This document shows positions 148 to 16,148 of a stretch of 64,000 nucleotides of DNA, one piece after another; position 1 is the stretch's first letter; every line of letters starts with the position of its first letter. Under the pieces are notes generated by a model. It searched no databases, had not been told where the DNA came from, and was given only the letters and a program-made list of their open reading frames with translations. The position numbers and the translations under genes are program-made. Origin of the DNA: an uncultured Anaerolineae bacterium (GTDB taxonomy: Bacteria > Chloroflexota > Anaerolineae > JAADDB01). The stretch is taken from positions 6,962-70,961 of the forward strand of contig CAYPUG010000001.1 in the NCBI GenBank assembly GCA_964413905.1, given 5' to 3'.

Positions 148-1251
148 TTACTCCAACCGCTTCTCCGTCTTCGGGTCGAAGAGGTGCATGTGATCCATAT
201 TCACTACCAAATCCACCAGATCCCCATGGCGGACACGCACACGCGGGTCCACCCGGGCCACAAACGCCTTATTATCCGCGGTCAGACAGTACAGGAAGAT
301 CTCACTTCCCATCAACTCCGTCACATCCACTTTCGCCCGCATCTCGCCCGGGAAAATCTCAGGCGGAACGTACGGCTTCGCGTGGATATCCTCCGGACGA
401 ATACCGAAGATCACCTCCTTACCTTTATACTTACGGTAAATCTCGGCCTTATCCGGGGGCACCAGAAGGCGGAAAGAGCCGCCATCGACGAACAACTTGC
501 CGTCCGCCTCCACCAACGTCGCGTCGAAGAAATTCATGCTCGGGCTGCCGATGAATCCCGCAACGAAGACATTGCCCGGGCGCTCATAAAGGTTCTGCGG
601 CGTATCCACCTGCTGGAGCACACCGTCCCGCATGACCGCGATGCGCGTGGCCATGGTCATGGCCTCGACCTGATCGTGCGTCACATAAATAAACGTGGTT
701 CCCAGGCGCTGATGCAGTTTACTTAACTCCGCGCGGGTCTGGACGCGCAATTTCGCATCCAGGTTGGAGAGAGGCTCATCGAACAAGAAAACCTTGGGCT
801 GGCGCACAATCGCGCGCCCGACCGCCACACGCTGGCGCTGACCACCGGACAATTGCTTAGGCTTCCGGTCCAGCAGCTGCTCAATGCCCAAGATGCGGGC
901 CGCCTCATGCACCCGACGGTCAATCTCGTCCTTGGGAACTTTGCGCAACTTCAAGCCGAAGGCCATATTATCGTACACACTCATGTGAGGGTACAACGCG
1001 TAGGACTGAAACACCATCGCGATGTCCCGATCCTTAGGGGGAACATCGTTGACCAATCGGTCACCGATATAAATGTTTCCTGATGTGAGCTCCTCCAAAC
1101 CGGCCAGAAGACGCAACGTGGTGGTTTTTCCACAACCAGAAGGGCCTACAAAGACAAGGAATTCCTTATCCTCAATGTGAAGAGACAAGTCGTTAACCGC
1201 AATAACGTCTCCAAATCGCTTGGTCACGTGTTCAAAGGTTACACTCGCCAT
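148..1251 (-). CDS. Sugar ABC transporter ATP-binding protein, MalK/UgpC family. True start is at MASVTFEHV, not the upstream ORF extension.
   Basis: Walker A GPSGCGKTT, LSGGQRQR signature, Walker B FLFDEPLSNLD and a C-terminal MalK-type regulatory domain. GAGGGAAAT Shine-Dalgarno precedes the ATG at 1251. Confidence 0.85.
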   Translation of the reverse strand: MASVTFEHVTKRFGDVIAVNDLSLHIEDKEFLVFVGPSGCGKTTTLRLLAGLEELTSGNIYIGDRLVNDVPPKDRDIAMVFQSYALYPHMSVYDNMAFGLKLRKVPKDEIDRRVHEAARILGIEQLLDRKPKQLSGGQRQRVAVGRAIVRQPKVFLFDEPLSNLDAKLRVQTRAELSKLHQRLGTTFIYVTHDQVEAMTMATRIAVMRDGVLQQVDTPQNLYERPGNVFVAGFIGSPSMNFFDATLVEADGKLFVDGGSFRLLVPPDKAEIYRKYKGKEVIFGIRPEDIHAKPYVPPEIFPGEMRAKVDVTELMGSEIFLYCLTADNKAFVARVDPRVRVRHGDLVDLVVNMDHMHLFDPKTEKRLE

Positions 1252-1539
1252 ATTTCCCTCGGGCTCCATTAGGATGAGGTCGGAACGACCGCGGAGACCG
1301 AACTCTTCGGTCATCGGCCGGGCCTGGACGGCATCACCGGAGCGGAGCCAAACCCCGTAAGATGGCCGGCAGGGGATCCGACCGATGGGCATGAGCGCCT
1401 ATACCGTTCCCCGAAGTCATCCCCTTATTCAACAGCAGAATACCAAAGACGACCAACAACACAAGGAGAATGTTGAACACCTAAGTTCTCCGTCGACTTT
1501 CACCCCCTTTCCATGATATAACGTTTGGATGCCTCGCCT

Positions 1540-8994: not shown

Positions 8995-11565
8995 CTATCC
9001 TCCGCAATCGGGGGTTATTGTGACCGTCGGGGTCGCCCCCTCCCGAGCAACGATCTTTACCCGCCACGTACACGCACAACTCCCATCCGAACCGGAAATC
9101 CGGGCCCGATACATGCCTTCCAAGCGTACACCTTCCCCCAACAACGCGGAAGGGGGAAGTCCTCGATCCAACCATTGCCATCCCCATCCGGGACTCATAA
9201 CCCAACGAATGGTTTGACCGTACGCCTCTAACAGGGAAGAAGGACGAGTATAGCCCATCGTGCCCCACACCGAAGCGTCTTCCAGGGGAAACGCTTGACC
9301 GCTCCAATGCCATGAACGGGTCTGTTGGCCGCGCTCTGTGTGCCAGGACCAGGTCACCCGTCCTTCCTGCACCACTTTACAGGCAGCCGCATTGCTCCCC
9401 CGTGTCAACGCGGCCACTACGGCCACGTTGGCCCGCACCAACGTATCTTCGGTGAGCACCGCAACGGACGGCCCCAACAATGGAGTGTCCCCCACAGACC
9501 AAGGAAGGGGCAAAGGCGAAGGGCCGGAAGTGAGCACCTGCAGCGAATCGCACCCACACGCGACCTGTTCATTCCAGTGAGAAGTCTCCGTATCGAGCAC
9601 GTACACGGCTTCATCGTACAATCCCGCCGCGTCCCTCACAGTAAGACGCACCACGTACGTACCCGGTGCGTACGTGTGTTGTACGCTTTCCCCCTCTCCC
9701 GTCTGCCCATCCCCAAAATCCCAATGATAGGAGACAATGTCCTCGTCATAATCCATGCTCCCCGAAGCGTTCAACAACACACGACCGTCATCCAGGAACG
9801 AAGCGGTGGCGTACGCGTAGGGAGGATGCTCAAACGTCACCTGGCGGATGACCTGATACAGACGGCCTCGGTGATCCCACATGCGGGCGCGTAGGTGGAC
9901 CTTCTTCAGGGCAGGTACCGGGTTCCACAAAACCTCCCACACCCCATCTTCGACGAGATTCTCCATATCCGAGAGAGTGGCCACAGGTTGCCACCGCCGT
10001 CCGTCCCAATAGGAAAGATCCGCTGCAACCACATCGGTCAGAGACGTCACCACCAACAGAGGGCTTGCCCCGATCACGGGCTTACCCCCTTCCGCACCGG
10101 CCCACGTCAGAGTAATGGTGGGGGTATCCACTCCCTGTTCGGTCGAGAATGCCCCCGAGTGCACGAGCGCCCGGTATCCTAACCAGGGGAAATGAACATC
10201 CGGCGCATACCATCGCAAGGGCAGACGCAACGCCGCAATAGGCCCTTCTCCTTGCGGGTGTGCACTCACAAGCAAGGAGTCCGCCGCGGTCAGTGTGGCC
10301 GTCAACGGCACCTGCAGGGTTACGGTGAGCGTCACGCCCTGTCCCACATCCAGGTTATCCACATGGGTTGGGGACACGTGCACAGAAATCCCTTCAGGCG
10401 CGGTGGCCTGCACCTCGACAGATGCGGGATCAATGCCCCAATTCGTGAGGGAAAGGGTCCAACGGGTGGATGCCCCGCGGCGCAAAGGTTCCCAATAACC
10501 CACACCCAACCGGAGGATAGGGAGTGGACGTGGAGCACCCACATCGAGAGGAGCGTCCACCACATCGGCTAATGTCACACCCTCTGCCAACTCCACCCGG
10601 TCTGGGTTCACCCGCATGTGGGCCATACCGCCGAAAACGATCAACGGAGGGAAGCGAAACCGGATGCCCTGTAAACTCAACGTGGAAACATCTGAACCCA
10701 CAACCCACAGGCCTCGGGATCGGGCCATGACCGCCGCGGTATCGATACCGCTTAAATCCACCACAGAATGCCCATCCACAGCGAAGAAAACACCGTTGCC
10801 CCCTACGCGAGTCCTGTGGCCGGACGCGAGCAAACCCGACGAGGAGCGCAAGATGGTGTCCCCGTACGTCGCCCCCTCCCCCCCTAACACCCGGGAATCG
10901 GACATGATGATGCTATGCCCCCACAGGACCACATCCCCGCCATGTCCCTGGGTGGATGTCCCCCCGCGCACCTCGCCTACTTGCCACACCGCGGCCTTCG
11001 CTGTCAAGAAAACCGCGCCGCCGGGGAAGCCCCGAGTGCCCGCGCCACCGCGTACTGTCCCCCAATTTTCCACCATCCCCTGTAGGGATTCCAAACGCAC
11101 GGAGCCACCGGGCGAACCGGTGCGTCCGCCGTCACCGCCCAAAACAAGCCCTTTATTCACTACACCGGCGGTCACCGACCGAAGTCGCACCCCACCGCCT
11201 GCGTGCGTGTCATCGCCGTACCCGCCTAACACAGCCCCCTCGATGGTAATCGCCTTCTCCGCGAGAATGTCCACATCACAGCCGGAGGCCGCCTGCAAAA
11301 TACCGCGCGAAGCCACAAACAGCGAATCCACGGAGGGCGTCTGCCCTTCCAAGGTAACCACTACATTATCGGGAATAAGCACCGTACTATCAGGCCCCGG
11401 GATGGTCTCTCCCGGCACGGGATCGCCCGTTCTGCCCCACGTGGTGGGATCGTCCCACCGGCCGGAATGGAGGGCTTGAAAGGTTGAGACCGCCGCGACA
11501 GGTTGTGAAGGTGCCAGAACACTTAACAACAGGCCGATCGCGATGACAGCCCAAACATGTCTCAT
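8995..11565 (-). CDS. Secreted multidomain protein with an N-terminal signal peptide, Gly-rich parallel beta-helix-like repeats and a PKD domain
   Basis: Signal peptide MRHVWAVIAIGLLLSVLAPSQPVAA. PKD signature WDFGDGQTGEGESVQHTYAPGTYVVRLTVRD. GGxGxxG repeats. Confidence 0.7.
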   Translation of the reverse strand: MRHVWAVIAIGLLLSVLAPSQPVAAVSTFQALHSGRWDDPTTWGRTGDPVPGETIPGPDSTVLIPDNVVVTLEGQTPSVDSLFVASRGILQAASGCDVDILAEKAITIEGAVLGGYGDDTHAGGGVRLRSVTAGVVNKGLVLGGDGGRTGSPGGSVRLESLQGMVENWGTVRGGAGTRGFPGGAVFLTAKAAVWQVGEVRGGTSTQGHGGDVVLWGHSIIMSDSRVLGGEGATYGDTILRSSSGLLASGHRTRVGGNGVFFAVDGHSVVDLSGIDTAAVMARSRGLWVVGSDVSTLSLQGIRFRFPPLIVFGGMAHMRVNPDRVELAEGVTLADVVDAPLDVGAPRPLPILRLGVGYWEPLRRGASTRWTLSLTNWGIDPASVEVQATAPEGISVHVSPTHVDNLDVGQGVTLTVTLQVPLTATLTAADSLLVSAHPQGEGPIAALRLPLRWYAPDVHFPWLGYRALVHSGAFSTEQGVDTPTITLTWAGAEGGKPVIGASPLLVVTSLTDVVAADLSYWDGRRWQPVATLSDMENLVEDGVWEVLWNPVPALKKVHLRARMWDHRGRLYQVIRQVTFEHPPYAYATASFLDDGRVLLNASGSMDYDEDIVSYHWDFGDGQTGEGESVQHTYAPGTYVVRLTVRDAAGLYDEAVYVLDTETSHWNEQVACGCDSLQVLTSGPSPLPLPWSVGDTPLLGPSVAVLTEDTLVRANVAVVAALTRGSNAAACKVVQEGRVTWSWHTERGQQTRSWHWSGQAFPLEDASVWGTMGYTRPSSLLEAYGQTIRWVMSPGWGWQWLDRGLPPSALLGEGVRLEGMYRARISGSDGSCACTWRVKIVAREGATPTVTITPDCGG

Positions 11566-12647
11566 GTGTACTCCTCCAGTCCGCGCGCTTTGAGTTCGGC
11601 TACGACGTTGCGCACGTCCTGTGCCCGATCACGCGGGCATACGAGGATGGCATCGGCCGTTTCGATGATGACCACATCCGAAAGACCGACCACGGCCACC
11701 AATCTCCCCCCACTCAACACCAGACTGCCCTGTGTATCCAAAAGAAGAACCTGTCCCTCCACCGCGTTGCCTTGTTCGTCCTTCGGGTACTCCTTATACA
11801 CAGCCTCCCAACTGCCCACATCATTCCACCCGATCTCTGCCGGAATCACCGCACCATCGGTAATGTATTCCATAATGCCGAAATCCACCGATTGGGAAGG
11901 CAATGTAGGCCACACCTCGTTCAGAACTCGCGTCTCCTCCGACGTGTCCATAGCCTCCGCGATGCGCATCAGGCCGGCGTACAAATCCGGCATGTGCTGC
12001 CGGATCTCCTCCAAAATGCGATCCACCCGCCAAATGAACATACCACTGTTCCACGAATAACGACCGGTTCGCAAAAATCGCTCCGCGGTAGCCCGGTCGG
12101 GTTTCTCCGTAAACCGAACCAAACGGTACACATCCAGCCCCTCCCACTGCCCAAGGAGATCCCCCCGTTCGATGTATCCGTATCCGGTCGCGGGCTCTGT
12201 GGGCTCGATGCCCAGGGTAACAATCCGCCCCTCCCGAGCCACCGCGGCCGCAGCCCGCAATACCTGTCGAAAGCGGTCCACCCGGGTAATAATGTGATCT
12301 GCGGTCAGTACAGCCATCACCGCGTCCGGGTCCCGTCGTTGCAGAACCACCGCGGCCCAGCCGACAGCAGGCGCGGTGTTCCGACCTTCGGGTTCGCCCA
12401 GGACGTTCTTCGGCGGCAAGGCCGGCAACTGATCGAGAACGCGAGCCACAAACCGACGGTTGGTCACCACGTACACATGGTCGGGAGAGGTTAACTCCAC
12501 CGCGCGCCGGTAAGATTCTTGCAGGAGCGTGTATGGGCTGTTGAAACGCAAGAACTGTTTGGGGTTATCGCCGCGACTTTGCGGCCAAAGGCGGGTACCA
12601 CTTCCTCCGGCCAGGATCACCGGATAAAAGTGCTCGATACGTGCCAT
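11562..12647 (-). CDS. manC: Mannose-1-phosphate guanylyltransferase (GDP-mannose pyrophosphorylase)
   Basis: N-terminal nucleotidyltransferase motif ILAGGSGTRLWP. GGGAGG Shine-Dalgarno before MARIEHF. The 4-bp overlap with the downstream gene (ATGA) suggests translational coupling. Confidence 0.8.
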   Translation of the reverse strand: MARIEHFYPVILAGGSGTRLWPQSRGDNPKQFLRFNSPYTLLQESYRRAVELTSPDHVYVVTNRRFVARVLDQLPALPPKNVLGEPEGRNTAPAVGWAAVVLQRRDPDAVMAVLTADHIITRVDRFRQVLRAAAAVAREGRIVTLGIEPTEPATGYGYIERGDLLGQWEGLDVYRLVRFTEKPDRATAERFLRTGRYSWNSGMFIWRVDRILEEIRQHMPDLYAGLMRIAEAMDTSEETRVLNEVWPTLPSQSVDFGIMEYITDGAVIPAEIGWNDVGSWEAVYKEYPKDEQGNAVEGQVLLLDTQGSLVLSGGRLVAVVGLSDVVIIETADAILVCPRDRAQDVRNVVAELKARGLEEYT

Positions 12648-12660
12648 GAGCAAGCCTCCC

Positions 12661-13221
12661 TCAAGTTGAGAGTTTTTCGGACCCACAAACATAAGCCATG
12701 CCGCAACGAGCACAACGTCGTGGGTCGTGATGGGAACGAGGCATCGTGTCCGCGTAAAGGGCCAACTGCATCTCTGTCAGCGTATCCAAAAGGGCCGTGC
12801 GCAATTCATCGGTGTACGGCACGCGCACGGTAGTATCACGATAGCGGATATACCCGTACGGAGGCCGTTGGCCATGGACCTCCTCGACCAACAGGCAGTA
12901 CGCGGCCAATTGAAGCATATGGCCCCAATAGGGACGCCCTTCCTTGGGTAGGTTGGCGGATTTGATCTCCACCGGAATAAGCCCGTCCTCGGTTTCTACC
13001 AAGTAATCCGGCTTTCCTACCAGACGCCATCGAGTGCTCACCAGCGCTTTTTCAGGCGGACGCCCCTCGTCCACGTCTTCGTAGACCACTTCGCCTTTAG
13101 GCATCCCGGTTGTCCGCCGTACCTGCCGTCCTCGATTCCACAAGACATACGCGATGCCGATGAGCAAAAAGCCCAGGAAGAGCGTGATGATGAGTGCGAT
13201 GAGTATGGGCATGATGTCCAA
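12661..13221 (-). CDS. C-terminal part of a Cas4-like RecB-family PD-(D/E)XK Fe-S nuclease with an N-terminal TM helix. TTG start, in frame with the upstream ORF after a TGA.
   Basis: Motif II D (GKPDYLV), motif III EIK, QxxxY (QLAAY) and a C-terminal Cx2Cx5C (CARCGMAYVC). Confidence 0.6.
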   Translation of the reverse strand: MDIMPILIALIITLFLGFLLIGIAYVLWNRGRQVRRTTGMPKGEVVYEDVDEGRPPEKALVSTRWRLVGKPDYLVETEDGLIPVEIKSANLPKEGRPYWGHMLQLAAYCLLVEEVHGQRPPYGYIRYRDTTVRVPYTDELRTALLDTLTEMQLALYADTMPRSHHDPRRCARCGMAYVCGSEKLST

Positions 13222-13224
13222 ACC

Positions 13225-13500
13225 TCACATAAAGATCCAGAGGATAGCCACTGCAATGAACAACAGCGCCAACCCCGCCACCGCGATCCACAAGGCGAGT
13301 TGGTGATACACATCGGCCTCGTGTACACGTCGACCGTGGCCTGCGTGGAATCGCTTCCCCCGCTCCAATTGGATGGGGTTTGCCGGTTCGTGGCCCCGCA
13401 CGTATTGCAGCCACCAGGCTCGATGACAGAAGTCCCAACGGGCCAACTCACTGGCCCGAATTAATCGCTTATACTGATCGCGCTCGCTCATGCTGTTCAC
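13225..13500 (-). CDS. N-terminal part of the same Cas4-like nuclease. Carries the conserved N-terminal Cys motif and a C-terminal TM helix, and ends at an in-frame TGA.
   Basis: RASELARWDFCHRAWWLQY resembles the Cas4 N-terminal C-P/H-R-R Fe-S ligand region. Hydrophobic stretch LALWIAVAGLALLFIAVAILWIF. Confidence 0.55.
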   Translation of the reverse strand: MNSMSERDQYKRLIRASELARWDFCHRAWWLQYVRGHEPANPIQLERGKRFHAGHGRRVHEADVYHQLALWIAVAGLALLFIAVAILWIFM

Positions 13501-13638
13501 CCAGAAAGAACTTGTACCACTACCCCCGGCCTGATTGATAACAGCCTATGCACCTCATTGATGAAGACACAAAACTCACCCGCTCCGGCAGCGAAAATAA
13601 CCGGCTCGATTGAAAAAACTCATGGAACCCTATGGGTA

Positions 13639-13657
13639 GGTAGGCGACGGCAGTGCC
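13639..13657 (+). repeat. 19-nt repeat GGTAGGCGACGGCAGTGCC, downstream of the translin-like gene
   Basis: Near-identical copy at 14499-14517 (GGTAGGCGACGGCATTGCC). Confidence 0.6.
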
Positions 13658-13680
13658 TTCACCTATCCACCACACCTCGC

Positions 13681-14310
13681 TCAATCGGCCTCGTCCGTTT
13701 TTCGACCTAACGCGCGGATAAGCCGATCATGCTGCAATGTGAGCGTTAAATCCCCTCTCGTGCGTTCCAGCACACCGCGCAGCACATCCACCTGCCGACG
13801 CAATCCACCGGTGATGGCGTCGGGATAATCAACCAGGATCAGCACGTCGTAGACGTCCTCCATGTAGGATAACAACAATTCGGCCCGTTCCAATTCCTGC
13901 CGACGCATCAGATCTAAAATGTGTCGACGCAACTCGGTGGCTGCCTCGGCCAACCCACCCAGGTACACGTGGTCGGGCACGTTCATACTTTCCGGGGTAG
14001 GCAGAGGGGCGCCCCTGACAAACGCCAAGAGAGTCTCGGCCTCTACCCACTCCTTCAACGCGTCCCCGGTATATCCCGTGAAGTAGAGGTCAGGGTGTTC
14101 CTCGAGGGGCTGCACCAATGCCTGAGCCTGACGTCGCGCGTCTTCCAGAAGGCGTTGAGCCTCCTCGAATTGATGACGGTGAACCGCTCGCGTGATCAGT
14201 CCGCACGTGCGAATCAACGTCCTGGATCGTTGCAGGGTCTCATCTCGAACGCGGTTCTTTGTTTCCAAGCGCCCGAGAATGCGCTCAATGGCTTCCTGTA
14301 ATCCATCCAC
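13681..14310 (-). CDS. Translin-family protein (all-alpha, nucleic-acid-binding), GTG start
   Basis: Translin hallmark motifs: YLGGLAEAATELRRHIL (compare YLLGVADLTGELMR) and the C-terminal LRRQVDVLRGVLE block. Confidence 0.6.
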   Translation of the reverse strand: MDGLQEAIERILGRLETKNRVRDETLQRSRTLIRTCGLITRAVHRHQFEEAQRLLEDARRQAQALVQPLEEHPDLYFTGYTGDALKEWVEAETLLAFVRGAPLPTPESMNVPDHVYLGGLAEAATELRRHILDLMRRQELERAELLLSYMEDVYDVLILVDYPDAITGGLRRQVDVLRGVLERTRGDLTLTLQHDRLIRALGRKTDEAD

Positions 14311-14498
14311 CGGTGTTCCGCTCCTCGTCGAGGTTGGGATGTGGTGAACAATGGCCGGCCACGATATTCCCGCGATGTCTTTGTGGCTTGAGTATATTCA
14401 CGATAAAGGGTTTTTCCAAATAGCGCGAATTCGCTCCTCCCGCGCTTACCGGGATACGAGAAGGCTCGTCGTGTCCCCGGGCTTTTCAGAGAGTTTAC

Positions 14499-14544
14499 GG
14501 GTAGGCGACGGCATTGCCGTGGCCTACCCGGCCGTCGCCTACCC
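14499..14544. repeat. Repeat cluster: one forward GGTAGGCGACGGCATTGCC followed by two tandem inverted copies (GCCGTGGCCTACCC, GCCGTCGCCTACCC)
   Basis: 13-14 bp perfect inverted repeats, read directly from the sequence, 190-240 bp upstream of the translin-like gene start. Confidence 0.6.
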
Positions 14545-14660
14545 GAGGGTCTTACGATGGCTCAACCGCCGATACAGCGCCTTCGCGTGTTAGAGCATTG
14601 AAAAACTCCGTCGTGCCCCCACGCGCTTGCCTCTCTTCATGCATCTTTGTACAATTTAGT

Positions 14661-14765
14661 CTGATTGACGGACATATCGCGTTTCATGTACCTCGGCGTA
14701 AAGAAGGAGTAGCCTTCCCCTTTCTAGGCCAAGGTGCATTCACAGAGTTTTTGTCAGTCAATCAG
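14661..14765. repeat. MITE-like element copy C (without the central hairpin), lying in the serS upstream region and flanked by the 9-bp direct repeat CAATTTAGT
   Basis: TIRs CTGATTGACGGACA / TGTCAGTCAATCAG. About 45 nt of near-identity to the reverse complement of copy A (GACATATCGCGTTTCATGTACYTCGGCGTAAAGA). Direct repeats at 14652-14660 and 14766-14774. Confidence 0.7.
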
Positions 14766-14867
14766 CAATTTAGTTTACAATAGAAATAGCTCATGAAGGC
14801 ACAGAAGCCAATCCCCCCATCCACGACCGCAACACCGAGGGGAATTTTACCGCGGGGAGGTACACGT

Positions 14868-16148
14868 ATGCTTGACATCACACTGATTCGAGAACACCCA
14901 GAAGTCGTCCGGGAGGGCTTGCGCAAACGACATGAAGACACCGATATTCTCGATCGCGTTCTGGAACTGGATCGCCGACGCCGCTCGCTCCTGCAAGAAG
15001 TAGAACACCTGCGCGCGGAACGGAATCGTGTGTCCAAGGAAATCGGCCGGACCAAGGACAGCGCGGAGCGGGACGCGAAAATCAAGGCCATGCGCGAACT
15101 CAAGACGCGCCTGGAACGCCTGGAGCAAGCACTCCGCGAAGTGGAGACCCAACTTCAGGATGCGCTCTCTCGCATCCCCAACCTCCCCCATGAATCCGTC
15201 CCCGAGGGTGTGGACGATCGGGACAACGTGGTCGTGAGAACATGGGGCGAACCGCGCACCTTTGACTTTACCCCCCTTCCCCACTGGGACTTGGGTCCCA
15301 TGTTAGACATCATTGATTTCGAACGCGCCGCGAAAATCTCCGGCAGTCGATTTTACATCCTCAAAGGTCTGGGCGCACGGTTACAGCGCGCGCTCATCAC
15401 CTGGATGTTGGACGTGCACACTCAAGAGCACGGGTATGTGGAGGTGTATCCTCCCGCGCTGGTGCGCTCACGGGCCCTTTACGGAACAGGAAACCTGCCC
15501 AAGTTCGCGGACGTGCTGTACAAGGACCACGAGGAAGACCTCTGGCTCATCCCCACCGCGGAAGTGCCTGTGACAAACCTGTACGCGGACGAAATTTTGC
15601 CGCCGGGAAGTCTCCCCATCTACCACACCGCGTACACACCCTGTTTCCGGCGGGAGAAAGTCGCGGCCGGCCGCGATGTGCGAGGTATCAAGCGAGTCCA
15701 CCAATTCGACAAGGTGGAATTGGTAAAATTCGTGGAACCAGAACAGGGGTGGGAGGAGTTACAAACCCTGTTGCAAAACGCGGAAGTCCTATTGCAACGG
15801 TTGGACCTGCCCTACCGTGTGGTGTTGCTCAGTACCGGGGACCTGGGCTTCAGCGCGAGCATCACCTATGACCTGGAAGTGTGGGCTCCGGGCAGTCAGG
15901 AATGGTTGGAAGTGTCCTCCTGCAGTTGGTTCACCGACTTCCAAGCACGACGAGCGAACATCCGCTACCGCCCGGCGTCGAACGCGAAACCGCGTTTCGT
16001 GCACACCCTCAACGGATCGGGGTTGGCTCTGCCACGCACCATGATCGCCATCCTGGAAAATTACCAACAACCGGACGGATCCGTGGTCATCCCGGAGGTC
16101 CTCCGTCCGTACATGGGCGTCGACAAGATAGAGAATCCGGGTATGTAG
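14868..16148 (+). CDS. serS: Seryl-tRNA synthetase
   Basis: N-terminal coiled-coil arm plus the class II core. GGAGG Shine-Dalgarno before MLDITLIREHPE. Confidence 0.9.
   Translation: MLDITLIREHPEVVREGLRKRHEDTDILDRVLELDRRRRSLLQEVEHLRAERNRVSKEIGRTKDSAERDAKIKAMRELKTRLERLEQALREVETQLQDALSRIPNLPHESVPEGVDDRDNVVVRTWGEPRTFDFTPLPHWDLGPMLDIIDFERAAKISGSRFYILKGLGARLQRALITWMLDVHTQEHGYVEVYPPALVRSRALYGTGNLPKFADVLYKDHEEDLWLIPTAEVPVTNLYADEILPPGSLPIYHTAYTPCFRREKVAAGRDVRGIKRVHQFDKVELVKFVEPEQGWEELQTLLQNAEVLLQRLDLPYRVVLLSTGDLGFSASITYDLEVWAPGSQEWLEVSSCSWFTDFQARRANIRYRPASNAKPRFVHTLNGSGLALPRTMIAILENYQQPDGSVVIPEVLRPYMGVDKIENPGM

Follow-up and report, generated by a model that had tools for sequence, protein, structure and literature searches.

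Analysis of a 64-kb stretch of DNA from an uncultured Anaerolineae bacterium (contig CAYPUG010000001.1 of assembly GCA_964413905.1; the whole stretch is referred to below as the window) points to a pair of minus-strand genes, denoted here cas4N and cas4C, that are likely to encode a genuine and ancient two-subunit, membrane-tethered solo-Cas4, a predicted enzyme that is common in Chloroflexota and is found also in some Acidobacteriota. The products of the two genes are complementary halves of the Cas4 motif set, with the break located between motif I and motif II. The one feature of the standard description of Cas4 that is missing here is the single soluble polypeptide that contains all the motifs: the motifs are divided between two genes, each of which encodes a transmembrane helix. 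We refer to the pair as a solo-Cas4 because there is no cas1, cas2 or CRISPR array beside the genes.

The original prediction, made from the letters of the window, described one Cas4-like iron-sulfur (Fe-S) nuclease split by an in-frame TGA and offered three readings, namely a recent nonsense mutation, recoding and a genuinely split two-subunit enzyme; the last of these turns out to be the right one. Its description of two minus-strand open reading frames (ORFs) that share one frame with a TGA between them is borne out by the ORFs of the window and by the reverse complement of the junction (...ATC TTT ATG TGA GGT TTG GAC ATC ATG...): the upstream ORF (13225-13500) specifies 91 amino acids (aa) from a GTG and stops at the TGA at 13225-13227, and the downstream ORF (12661-13221) specifies 186 aa from a TTG. 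Within these ORFs, cas4N (13225..13491, minus strand) starts at a conserved ATG at 13489-13491, ends at the same TGA and encodes the 88-aa N-terminal subunit (MSERDQY...), and cas4C (12661..13212, minus strand) starts at a conserved ATG at 13210-13212 and encodes the 183-aa C-terminal subunit (MPILIAL...), so that a spacer of 12 nucleotides (nt; 13213..13224, minus strand) separates the stop of the first from the start of the second. Reinitiation at the TTG, as initially suggested for the downstream piece, did not hold up: conservation points to the ATG 9 nt beyond it as the start, and this assignment follows from an in-frame TAA that precedes the ATG, 9 nt upstream, in a locus of the closest relative (L001). 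A Shine-Dalgarno-like GAGG (13223-13226) overlaps the TGA of cas4N and lies 10 nt before the ATG of cas4C, and because of this arrangement translation of cas4C is probably coupled to that of cas4N in the window. A search of positions 12000-15000 of the window against Rfam detected no meaningful element, and promoter and terminator scans yielded no signal above shuffled background.

The assignment of the C-terminal piece to the Cas4/PD-(D/E)XK superfamily is firm. The cas4C protein matches TIGR00372 with 71.3 bits (cut-off 65) over positions 58-179 of 180 and PF01930 with 35.6 bits (cut-off 22.7), and PF12705 is matched as well. All the motifs that had been read off the sequence of this piece are present, namely Asp69 (in PDY), Glu82-x-Lys84 (EIK), Gln101xxxTyr105 (QLAAY) and the cluster Cys167-x2-Cys170-x5-Cys176 (CARCGMAYVC), along with His161. 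The complementary claim, that the N-terminal piece with its DFCHRAWWLQY motif is the missing N-terminus of Cas4, is also sustained, on different grounds. Taken individually, the cas4N protein matches Cas4 profiles weakly: E is 0.075 for TIGR00372, over profile positions 3-44, and 0.0014 for the Cas4 models of PADLOC. In an alignment of a profile of its homologues with the solved Cas4 structures 8D3L and 4R5Q, the segment FChRAWW pairs with FCkRqW and YCpRllW, which contain the first Fe-S cysteine, and GtaaH pairs with GqhlH and GrilH, which contain the motif-I histidine. The soluble part of the small subunit accordingly holds the Fe-S ligand Cys22 (codon 13426-13428) and Gly45xxxHis49 with the motif-I histidine (codon 13345-13347), as well as His52. 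Concatenation of the two proteins raises the TIGR00372 score to 80.7 bits, in two stretches. Across 86 distinct pairs of N- and C-proteins, Cys22, Trp26, Gly45 and His49 of the small subunit are 100% conserved, Asp69, Glu82, Lys84, Gln101 and Tyr105 of the large subunit are invariant, and the four cysteines of the predicted cluster (Cys22 of the one, Cys167, Cys170 and Cys176 of the other) are all at least 98% conserved. A fifth cysteine of cas4C, Cys106 (codon 12895-12897), directly follows the QxxxY motif (QLAAYC) and is not a canonical Cas4 cluster ligand. Its conservation is complete in the first 31 pairs and drops to less than 95% when all 86 are taken, and we consider it an unlikely alternative fourth ligand, considering that Cys22 of cas4N is invariant.

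Loci for comparison were gathered in two ways: the C-piece led to 80 loci in genomes, and the N-piece to 80 in metagenomes. A metagenome-assembled genome of an uncultured member of the Anaerolineae (loci L001-L003 and L007) is the closest relative, with proteins that are 90-92% identical to those of the window. In L001-L003, the same two genes are found with the same TGA, and the GAGG and its 10-nt spacing to the ATG are kept; the spacer, however, is 13 nt compared with 12 nt in the window, which places the two ORFs in different frames. Between the window and L001, cas4N differs by 48.5 synonymous and 7.5 non-synonymous substitutions, with a proportion of synonymous differences (pS) of 0.82, which is saturated, and a proportion of non-synonymous differences (pN) of 0.037, and for cas4C omega, the ratio of the non-synonymous to the synonymous rate, is 0.034. 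Judged by this pattern of substitution, cas4N and cas4C are real protein-coding genes under strong purifying selection. A recent nonsense mutation (e.g., TGG to TGA) in a single-chain membrane-hairpin Cas4, which would make the locus a fresh pseudogene or a decaying gene, has next to no chance of being the explanation. It would suit the window itself, where the ORFs are in one frame and only a TGA and a few codons apart, and rare single-chain forms (P0339 and P0016; see below) do exist; yet the stop is shared with a relative in which synonymous sites are saturated and the frames differ, selection on both ORFs is strong, and stand-alone N- and C-proteins are the rule across thousands of clusters. 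Moreover, among 32 adjacent homologous pairs, the frame relations 0, 1 and 2 occur 5, 13 and 14 times, respectively. The common frame of the two genes in the window is a coincidence of the kind expected once in three for adjacent genes on the same strand, and the TGA does not mark an event in this genome, as the phrase "split by an in-frame TGA" would have it.

Programmed recoding, whether by read-through of the TGA, insertion of selenocysteine or tryptophan, or frameshifting, so that one protein of 270-280 aa is made, is just as vanishingly improbable. Apart from the in-frame TGA of the window, its appeal lies in a natural fusion, P0339, which shows that a single chain is viable. Against it, TAA and TAG together are almost as frequent as TGA among the stops of homologous N-genes (TGA 60, TAG 28 and TAA 26 in 116 distinct N-genes), there is no Rfam element at the junction, and the SD-like GAGG and a conserved ATG stand ahead of cas4C. 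The downstream gene can follow in any frame, overlaps cas4N by 16-28 nt in some homologous loci, and in about 10 loci is separated from it by a whole gene. In nine of these (L012, L013, L019, L025, L029, L045, L059, L070 and L083) the intervening gene encodes a membrane-anchored L,D-transpeptidase of the YkuD family (Pfam YkuD, E 1e-15 to 1e-17 in the 2 loci scanned), and in L073 it encodes an FMN reductase; the gap between cas4N and cas4C reaches about 2.4-2.6 kb in three loci. Because the frames vary, the stops vary and the genes are sometimes separated or, in some lineages, unlinked, both nonsense mutation and recoding are excluded. It is virtually certain that cas4N and cas4C are two real, conserved and separate genes, and on the comparison of these sequences the split is conserved and ancient, not recent. 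Wherever cas4N is present in a locus, it lies upstream of cas4C on the same strand.

The families defined by the two pieces are large. A search of 1.84 billion representative proteins with the N-piece profile recovered 1,006 clusters (at 50% identity) with E ≤ 1e-3, 362 of them with E ≤ 1e-10, and the best 150 relatives are all 65-133 aa long, with the match ending within a few residues of the C-terminus. A search with the paired N and C profiles, in which full-length fusions are expected to score highest, recovered at least 4,800 C-piece clusters at 90% identity, almost all of them 167-194 aa long; 118 of the 120 best matches are C-only proteins in this size range, and the other two are fusions. 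Orthologues with an uninterrupted ORF, which the original prediction proposed to look for, are represented by these two single-chain forms. In P0339 (286 aa; locus L170, 1692-2552) both transmembrane helices are present, and a low-complexity, disordered linker of about 45 aa connects them; the AlphaFold model of P0339 (pLDDT, the predicted local distance difference test, 83.7) has the same fold, with the linker disordered, and matches the nuclease domains of Dna2 (5EAX), Cas4, AdnAB (6PPU) and MGME1. The gene for P0339 adjoins a gene for an RseP-like M50 protease. P0016 (236 aa; locus L004, 347-1057) contains a single hydrophobic segment, comes from a contig of 1.2 kb and could owe its form to a deletion or to faulty assembly; if the segment spans the membrane, the two halves of P0016 lie on opposite sides of it. 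The rare fusions, in which the N-part precedes the C-part, argue that the products of cas4N and cas4C act together.

Going by the titles of the records for the 80 best genome loci, the Chloroflexota that carry the family include Anaerolineae, Caldilineae, Ardenticatenia, Thermoflexales and some Chloroflexia, and the Acidobacteriota include Pyrinomonadaceae/Blastocatellia. Altogether the family is carried by at least 580 species genomes. In the acidobacterial loci L017, L018, L022, L042, L054 and L072, only the N-C pair is present, and cas4N overlaps cas4C by 16 nt; the acidobacterial C-piece also has an extra insertion of about 13 alignment columns after the GLPxG segment (e.g., ...FAVGKIAPARLNA...).

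Hydropathy analysis (Kyte-Doolittle, 19-residue windows) predicts one transmembrane helix in each piece, located where the fold is broken, in agreement with the original prediction. Helix 1 (13228..13311, minus strand; maximum 2.89) comprises residues 61-88 of cas4N and extends to the last residue as a tail anchor; helix 2 (13132..13212, minus strand; maximum 3.03) comprises residues 1-27 of cas4C and has the form of a signal anchor. The membrane hairpin inserted into the Cas4 fold had been put at roughly 100 aa, which is close: by alignment to the Cas4 profile the inserted stretch is about 90 aa, made up of residues 58-91 of the N-piece (in the numbering of the 91-aa ORF) and residues 1-56 of the C-piece, which together replace profile positions 45-57. 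When the halves encoded in the window were joined as a single chain, with the rows of N and C homologues left unpaired, AlphaFold2 returned a model with mean pLDDT 94.3 and a predicted template modelling score (pTM) of 0.89, in which two long helices run antiparallel to each other. The first (39-86) carries His49 and runs on into transmembrane helix 1; after a short break, the second (92-123) consists of transmembrane helix 2 and its continuation, and the α/β nuclease core follows. In a Foldseek search the best match of the joined model in the Protein Data Bank was the type I-C Cas4 8D3L_I (E 8e-7; TM-score 0.68, target-normalised), in an alignment that spans both halves, and the next matches were the Cas4-Cas1 structure 7MI5, SSO0001, the ACE1 protein associated with prokaryotic Argonaute (pAgo; 9IAB, 9IAC) and MGME1. 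Furthermore, the pairwise identities of the N- and C-pieces correlate across the 86 distinct pairs (r = 0.71).

On the strength of the joined model, the natural fusions and the correlated identities of the pieces it can be predicted with good confidence that cas4N and cas4C assemble into one nuclease. No residues follow helix 1, 2-3 residues precede helix 2, and 5 Lys/Arg are found within the 15 residues after helix 2, so that by the positive-inside rule the catalytic domain is placed in the cytoplasm. We propose that cas4N would be inserted as a tail-anchored protein, with the N-terminus in and the C-terminus out, and cas4C as a signal-anchored protein, with the N-terminus out and the C-terminus in; both soluble parts would then face the cytoplasm, the compartment needed for an Fe-S enzyme. 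In the membrane, the two helices would associate as a split hairpin that brings the halves together, serving both as a tether and as an assembly device. The resulting active site would be composite, with His49 contributed by cas4N and Asp69, Glu82, Lys84, Gln101 and Tyr105 by cas4C, and both chains would supply ligands to one [4Fe-4S] cluster, Cys22 coming from the former and Cys167, Cys170 and Cys176 from the latter, such that neither protein alone would be a complete enzyme.

Several observations weigh against this proposal. The structural model is that of a forced, artificial single chain, in which docking of the halves is guided by the learned Cas4 fold and not by coevolution. In three Caldilineaceae chromosomes (L087-L089), no cas4N or TRAX gene is found within 10 kb of cas4C, which there (10001-10570) resides in another conserved context, zinc alcohol dehydrogenase-MaoC dehydratase-cas4C; conversely, in eight N-piece loci at least 2 kb of downstream sequence is free of a C-piece, and cas4C may act alone in some lineages. 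Activity without the cluster is reported for variants of Leptospira Cas4 (PMC8610317) and, in a passage of PMC13621843 that cites PMC12501428, for variants of solo-Cas4. Finally, the biological role suggested below is derived from gene neighbourhood.

These observations bear on the alternative that the two products work separately, cas4C being a self-sufficient membrane nuclease and the small protein an independent regulator, inhibitor or unrelated neighbour that merely resembles the N-terminus of Cas4. The individually weak matches of the N-piece to Cas4 profiles (E 0.0014-0.5), the unlinked genes of some lineages, the additional, mostly conserved Cys106 and the activity of some Cas4 enzymes without a cluster would all be in keeping with it. 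We nevertheless regard it as quite improbable. The C-piece lacks precisely the region of Cas4 that bears the first cluster cysteine and the motif-I histidine, and the N-piece has exactly these residues, in the right order and spacing and with complete conservation, whereas the conservation of Cys106 is not maintained in the wider set of pairs. In addition, a complete Cas4 fold is predicted for the joined halves with very high confidence, natural fusions combine the parts in N-then-C order, and an N-gene that is in the locus precedes cas4C on the same strand without exception.

The two-subunit enzyme proposed here shares with canonical Cas4 (PF01930/TIGR00372; SSO0001 4IC1, Pcal_0546 4R5Q, 8D3L and the Cas4-Cas1 fusion 7MI4) the fold of the joined model and the set of motifs: an N-terminal Cys, GxxxH, D, ExK, QxxxY and Cx2Cx5C. 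In contrast to canonical Cas4, which is a soluble single chain or a fusion with Cas1, it consists of two polypeptides broken between motifs I and II, each with a transmembrane helix, with about 90 aa in place of about 13 profile positions, and its genes are accompanied neither by cas1/cas2 nor by an array. A comparable combination of a PD-(D/E)XK core with a four-cysteine cluster, one cysteine N-terminal and three C-terminal, is found in the iron-staple RecB-family domains of Dna2, AddB and AdnAB; these, however, are domains of large soluble helicase-nucleases, whereas the cas4N/cas4C domain stands alone, split and anchored in the membrane. The flaps of single-stranded DNA on which Dna2 acts are covered by RPA, a protein of the SSB type, and this is reminiscent of the presence of ssb near the pair described below.

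A monophyletic clade of solo-Cas4 has been reported in many Chloroflexi (Hudaiberdiev et al., 2017; PMC5704561), and cas4C very probably belongs to the same clade. In databases the C-piece is labelled "CRISPR-associated protein Cas4". A term search of the main text of PMC5704561 found no "transmembrane", "split" or "translin", and the only match to "membrane" is a gloss on a gene name. Our literature search likewise found nothing on a split or membrane-anchored Cas4, nor on a link between bacterial TRAX and a Cas4-like nuclease, and, as far as the searched literature goes, neither the small partner gene nor the membrane helices nor the association with TRAX and ssb seems to have been described before. 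A paper on a "novel Cas4-like clade" in JCVI-syn3.0 concerns another family, DUF2779.

Directly upstream of cas4N, on the same strand, lies a gene (13681..14310, minus strand) for a TRAX/translin-like nuclease of the C3PO type. Its product matches the archaeal TRAX protein AfTRAX (3ZC0/3ZC1) over nearly the full length (3ZC1, E 6.8e-19, residues 8-200), with AEAATELRR aligned to ADAVGELRR of the acidic ELRR helix, and also matches NEQ131 (5JR9; E 2.6e-10). The score against Pfam Translin is 22.1 bits, under the cut-off of 25.9, so this gene may be missed by routine annotation. According to a passage in Zhang et al. (2016; PMC5100593) that cites Gupta (2012), bacterial genes of the translin superfamily are found only in Chloroflexi. 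In 36 of 87 sources (the window and L001-L086) cas4N is preceded on its own strand by a TRAX-like gene, which is the immediate upstream neighbour in 26 of the 44 loci in which the N-piece was found and enough upstream sequence is available, and in Chloroflexota such a gene is the usual partner of the pair; in the acidobacterial loci examined, no TRAX gene was detected. Further upstream, and again on the same strand, 26 loci (including L005, L006 and L010) contain ssb, and in 24 loci a DUF3467 gene is located between ssb and TRAX, so that the common string on one strand is ssb-DUF3467-TRAX-cas4N-cas4C. Neither ssb nor DUF3467 is found anywhere in the 64-kb window.

The order in the window is TRAX, a 189-nt spacer (13492..13680, minus strand), cas4N, cas4C, manC and a gene for a PKD-domain protein; serS flanks this string at its opposite end. 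The spacer is absent in L001, where TRAX and cas4N overlap (ATAATG). The gene for the ManC-like mannose-1-phosphate guanylyltransferase (11562-12650, minus strand) begins 14 nt after cas4C and has its own GGGAGG, and the gene for the 856-aa PKD-domain protein (8995-11565, minus strand) comes next. The order cas4C-manC-PKD is kept in the 90%-identical relative and not in more distant loci. Overall, the neighbours are of the housekeeping type (manC, serS, NAD kinase and a recN-like gene). The statement of the original prediction that no CRISPR array or cas genes lie nearby was confirmed for the whole 64-kb window: TRF found no CRISPR-like array, and PADLOC, applied to 50 ORFs of the window, found no cas operon and no match to cas1, cas2 or an effector, its Cas4 matches coming from this gene only. 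Similarly, the gene calls of those related loci that were inspected showed no cas1/cas2 or array. The pair is probably not a CRISPR adaptation factor.

With respect to function, a vertical-looking distribution, housekeeping neighbours and strong purifying selection suggest a housekeeping role, which we put forward as a tentative proposal based on these genomic features. In this role cas4N/cas4C would be a membrane-tethered nuclease that processes the ends of single-stranded DNA, or of RNA, with the TRAX/C3PO-like nuclease as a partner and, in many relatives, also with SSB and the DUF3467 protein encoded just upstream. In its full form, the proposal would be that of an obligate two-chain membrane nuclease of the Cas4/Dna2 type that works with C3PO (TRAX), SSB and DUF3467 as a so far unrecognised, vertically inherited nucleic-acid-processing system at the membrane of Chloroflexota, the N-C core of which is present also in Acidobacteriota; such a system is possible, although doubtful.

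The same two-subunit enzyme could instead defend the cell against phages or plasmids by cutting foreign DNA as it enters at the membrane. The analogy is with SNIPE, a nuclease that is constitutively located at the inner membrane (bioRxiv 10.1101/2025.11.03.685801) and embodies the same principle of tethering a DNA nuclease to the membrane. SNIPE is a single protein in a defence context, whereas cas4N/cas4C consists of two chains, and no homology of the latter to SNIPE was found, PADLOC also giving no match. The domains differ, and SNIPE belongs to another nuclease family; the likeness may be one of function. Involvement in defence would also fit the participation of Cas4-family enzymes in immunity, both in CRISPR adaptation and together with pAgo (ACE1, PMC12094033; the structural matches 9IAB and 9IAC). 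Nonetheless, defence appears unlikely as the function: apart from generic Cas4 models PADLOC gave no match to a defence system, the neighbours are housekeeping genes and ssb rather than components of defence islands, and the family is widespread in Chloroflexota, where its synteny is conserved, and is under strong purifying selection, with a distribution that looks vertical, not patchy.

If cas4N and cas4C form one enzyme as predicted, thousands of database entries of about 170-190 aa from Chloroflexota and Acidobacteriota that are labelled "CRISPR-associated protein Cas4" would represent only the C-terminal two thirds of it, the small partner being listed as hypothetical or not called at all. 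An active site and an Fe-S cluster shaped across two membrane-anchored chains would be unusual for the PD-(D/E)XK/Cas4 superfamily and would provide a natural case in which transmembrane helices serve to assemble a soluble fold that is made in two parts. The side-by-side arrangement of a solo-Cas4 and a prokaryotic C3PO/TRAX, often near ssb, offers a genetic handle on the functions of both. For genome scanning in general, the locus illustrates that an in-frame stop within a domain can be a conserved gene boundary instead of a lesion or a recoding site.

Some further features of the window deserve mention. Apart from the Cas4 matches, PADLOC reported one weak match to Csa3, weak matches to Cas3-type helicases for two ORFs, matches to mad3/mad8/AriA-type ATPases for up to three ORFs, and a strong match to SspA/DndA (ORF 151-1392, minus strand; E 2.7e-51), which may be a housekeeping cysteine desulfurase. 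The 13-mer GCCGTCGCCTACC occurs in 4 copies in the 64-kb window compared with 0.07 expected, and all four copies flank the TRAX-like gene. Upstream of this gene, at 14498-14545, there is a near-perfect palindrome, CGGGTAGGCGACGGC...GCCGTCGCCTACCCG, a degenerate 30-nt copy of which is located at 13639-13668, within the 189-nt spacer before cas4N; this palindromic repeat could be an operator, a hairpin resembling repetitive extragenic palindromic (REP) elements or a remnant of an insertion.

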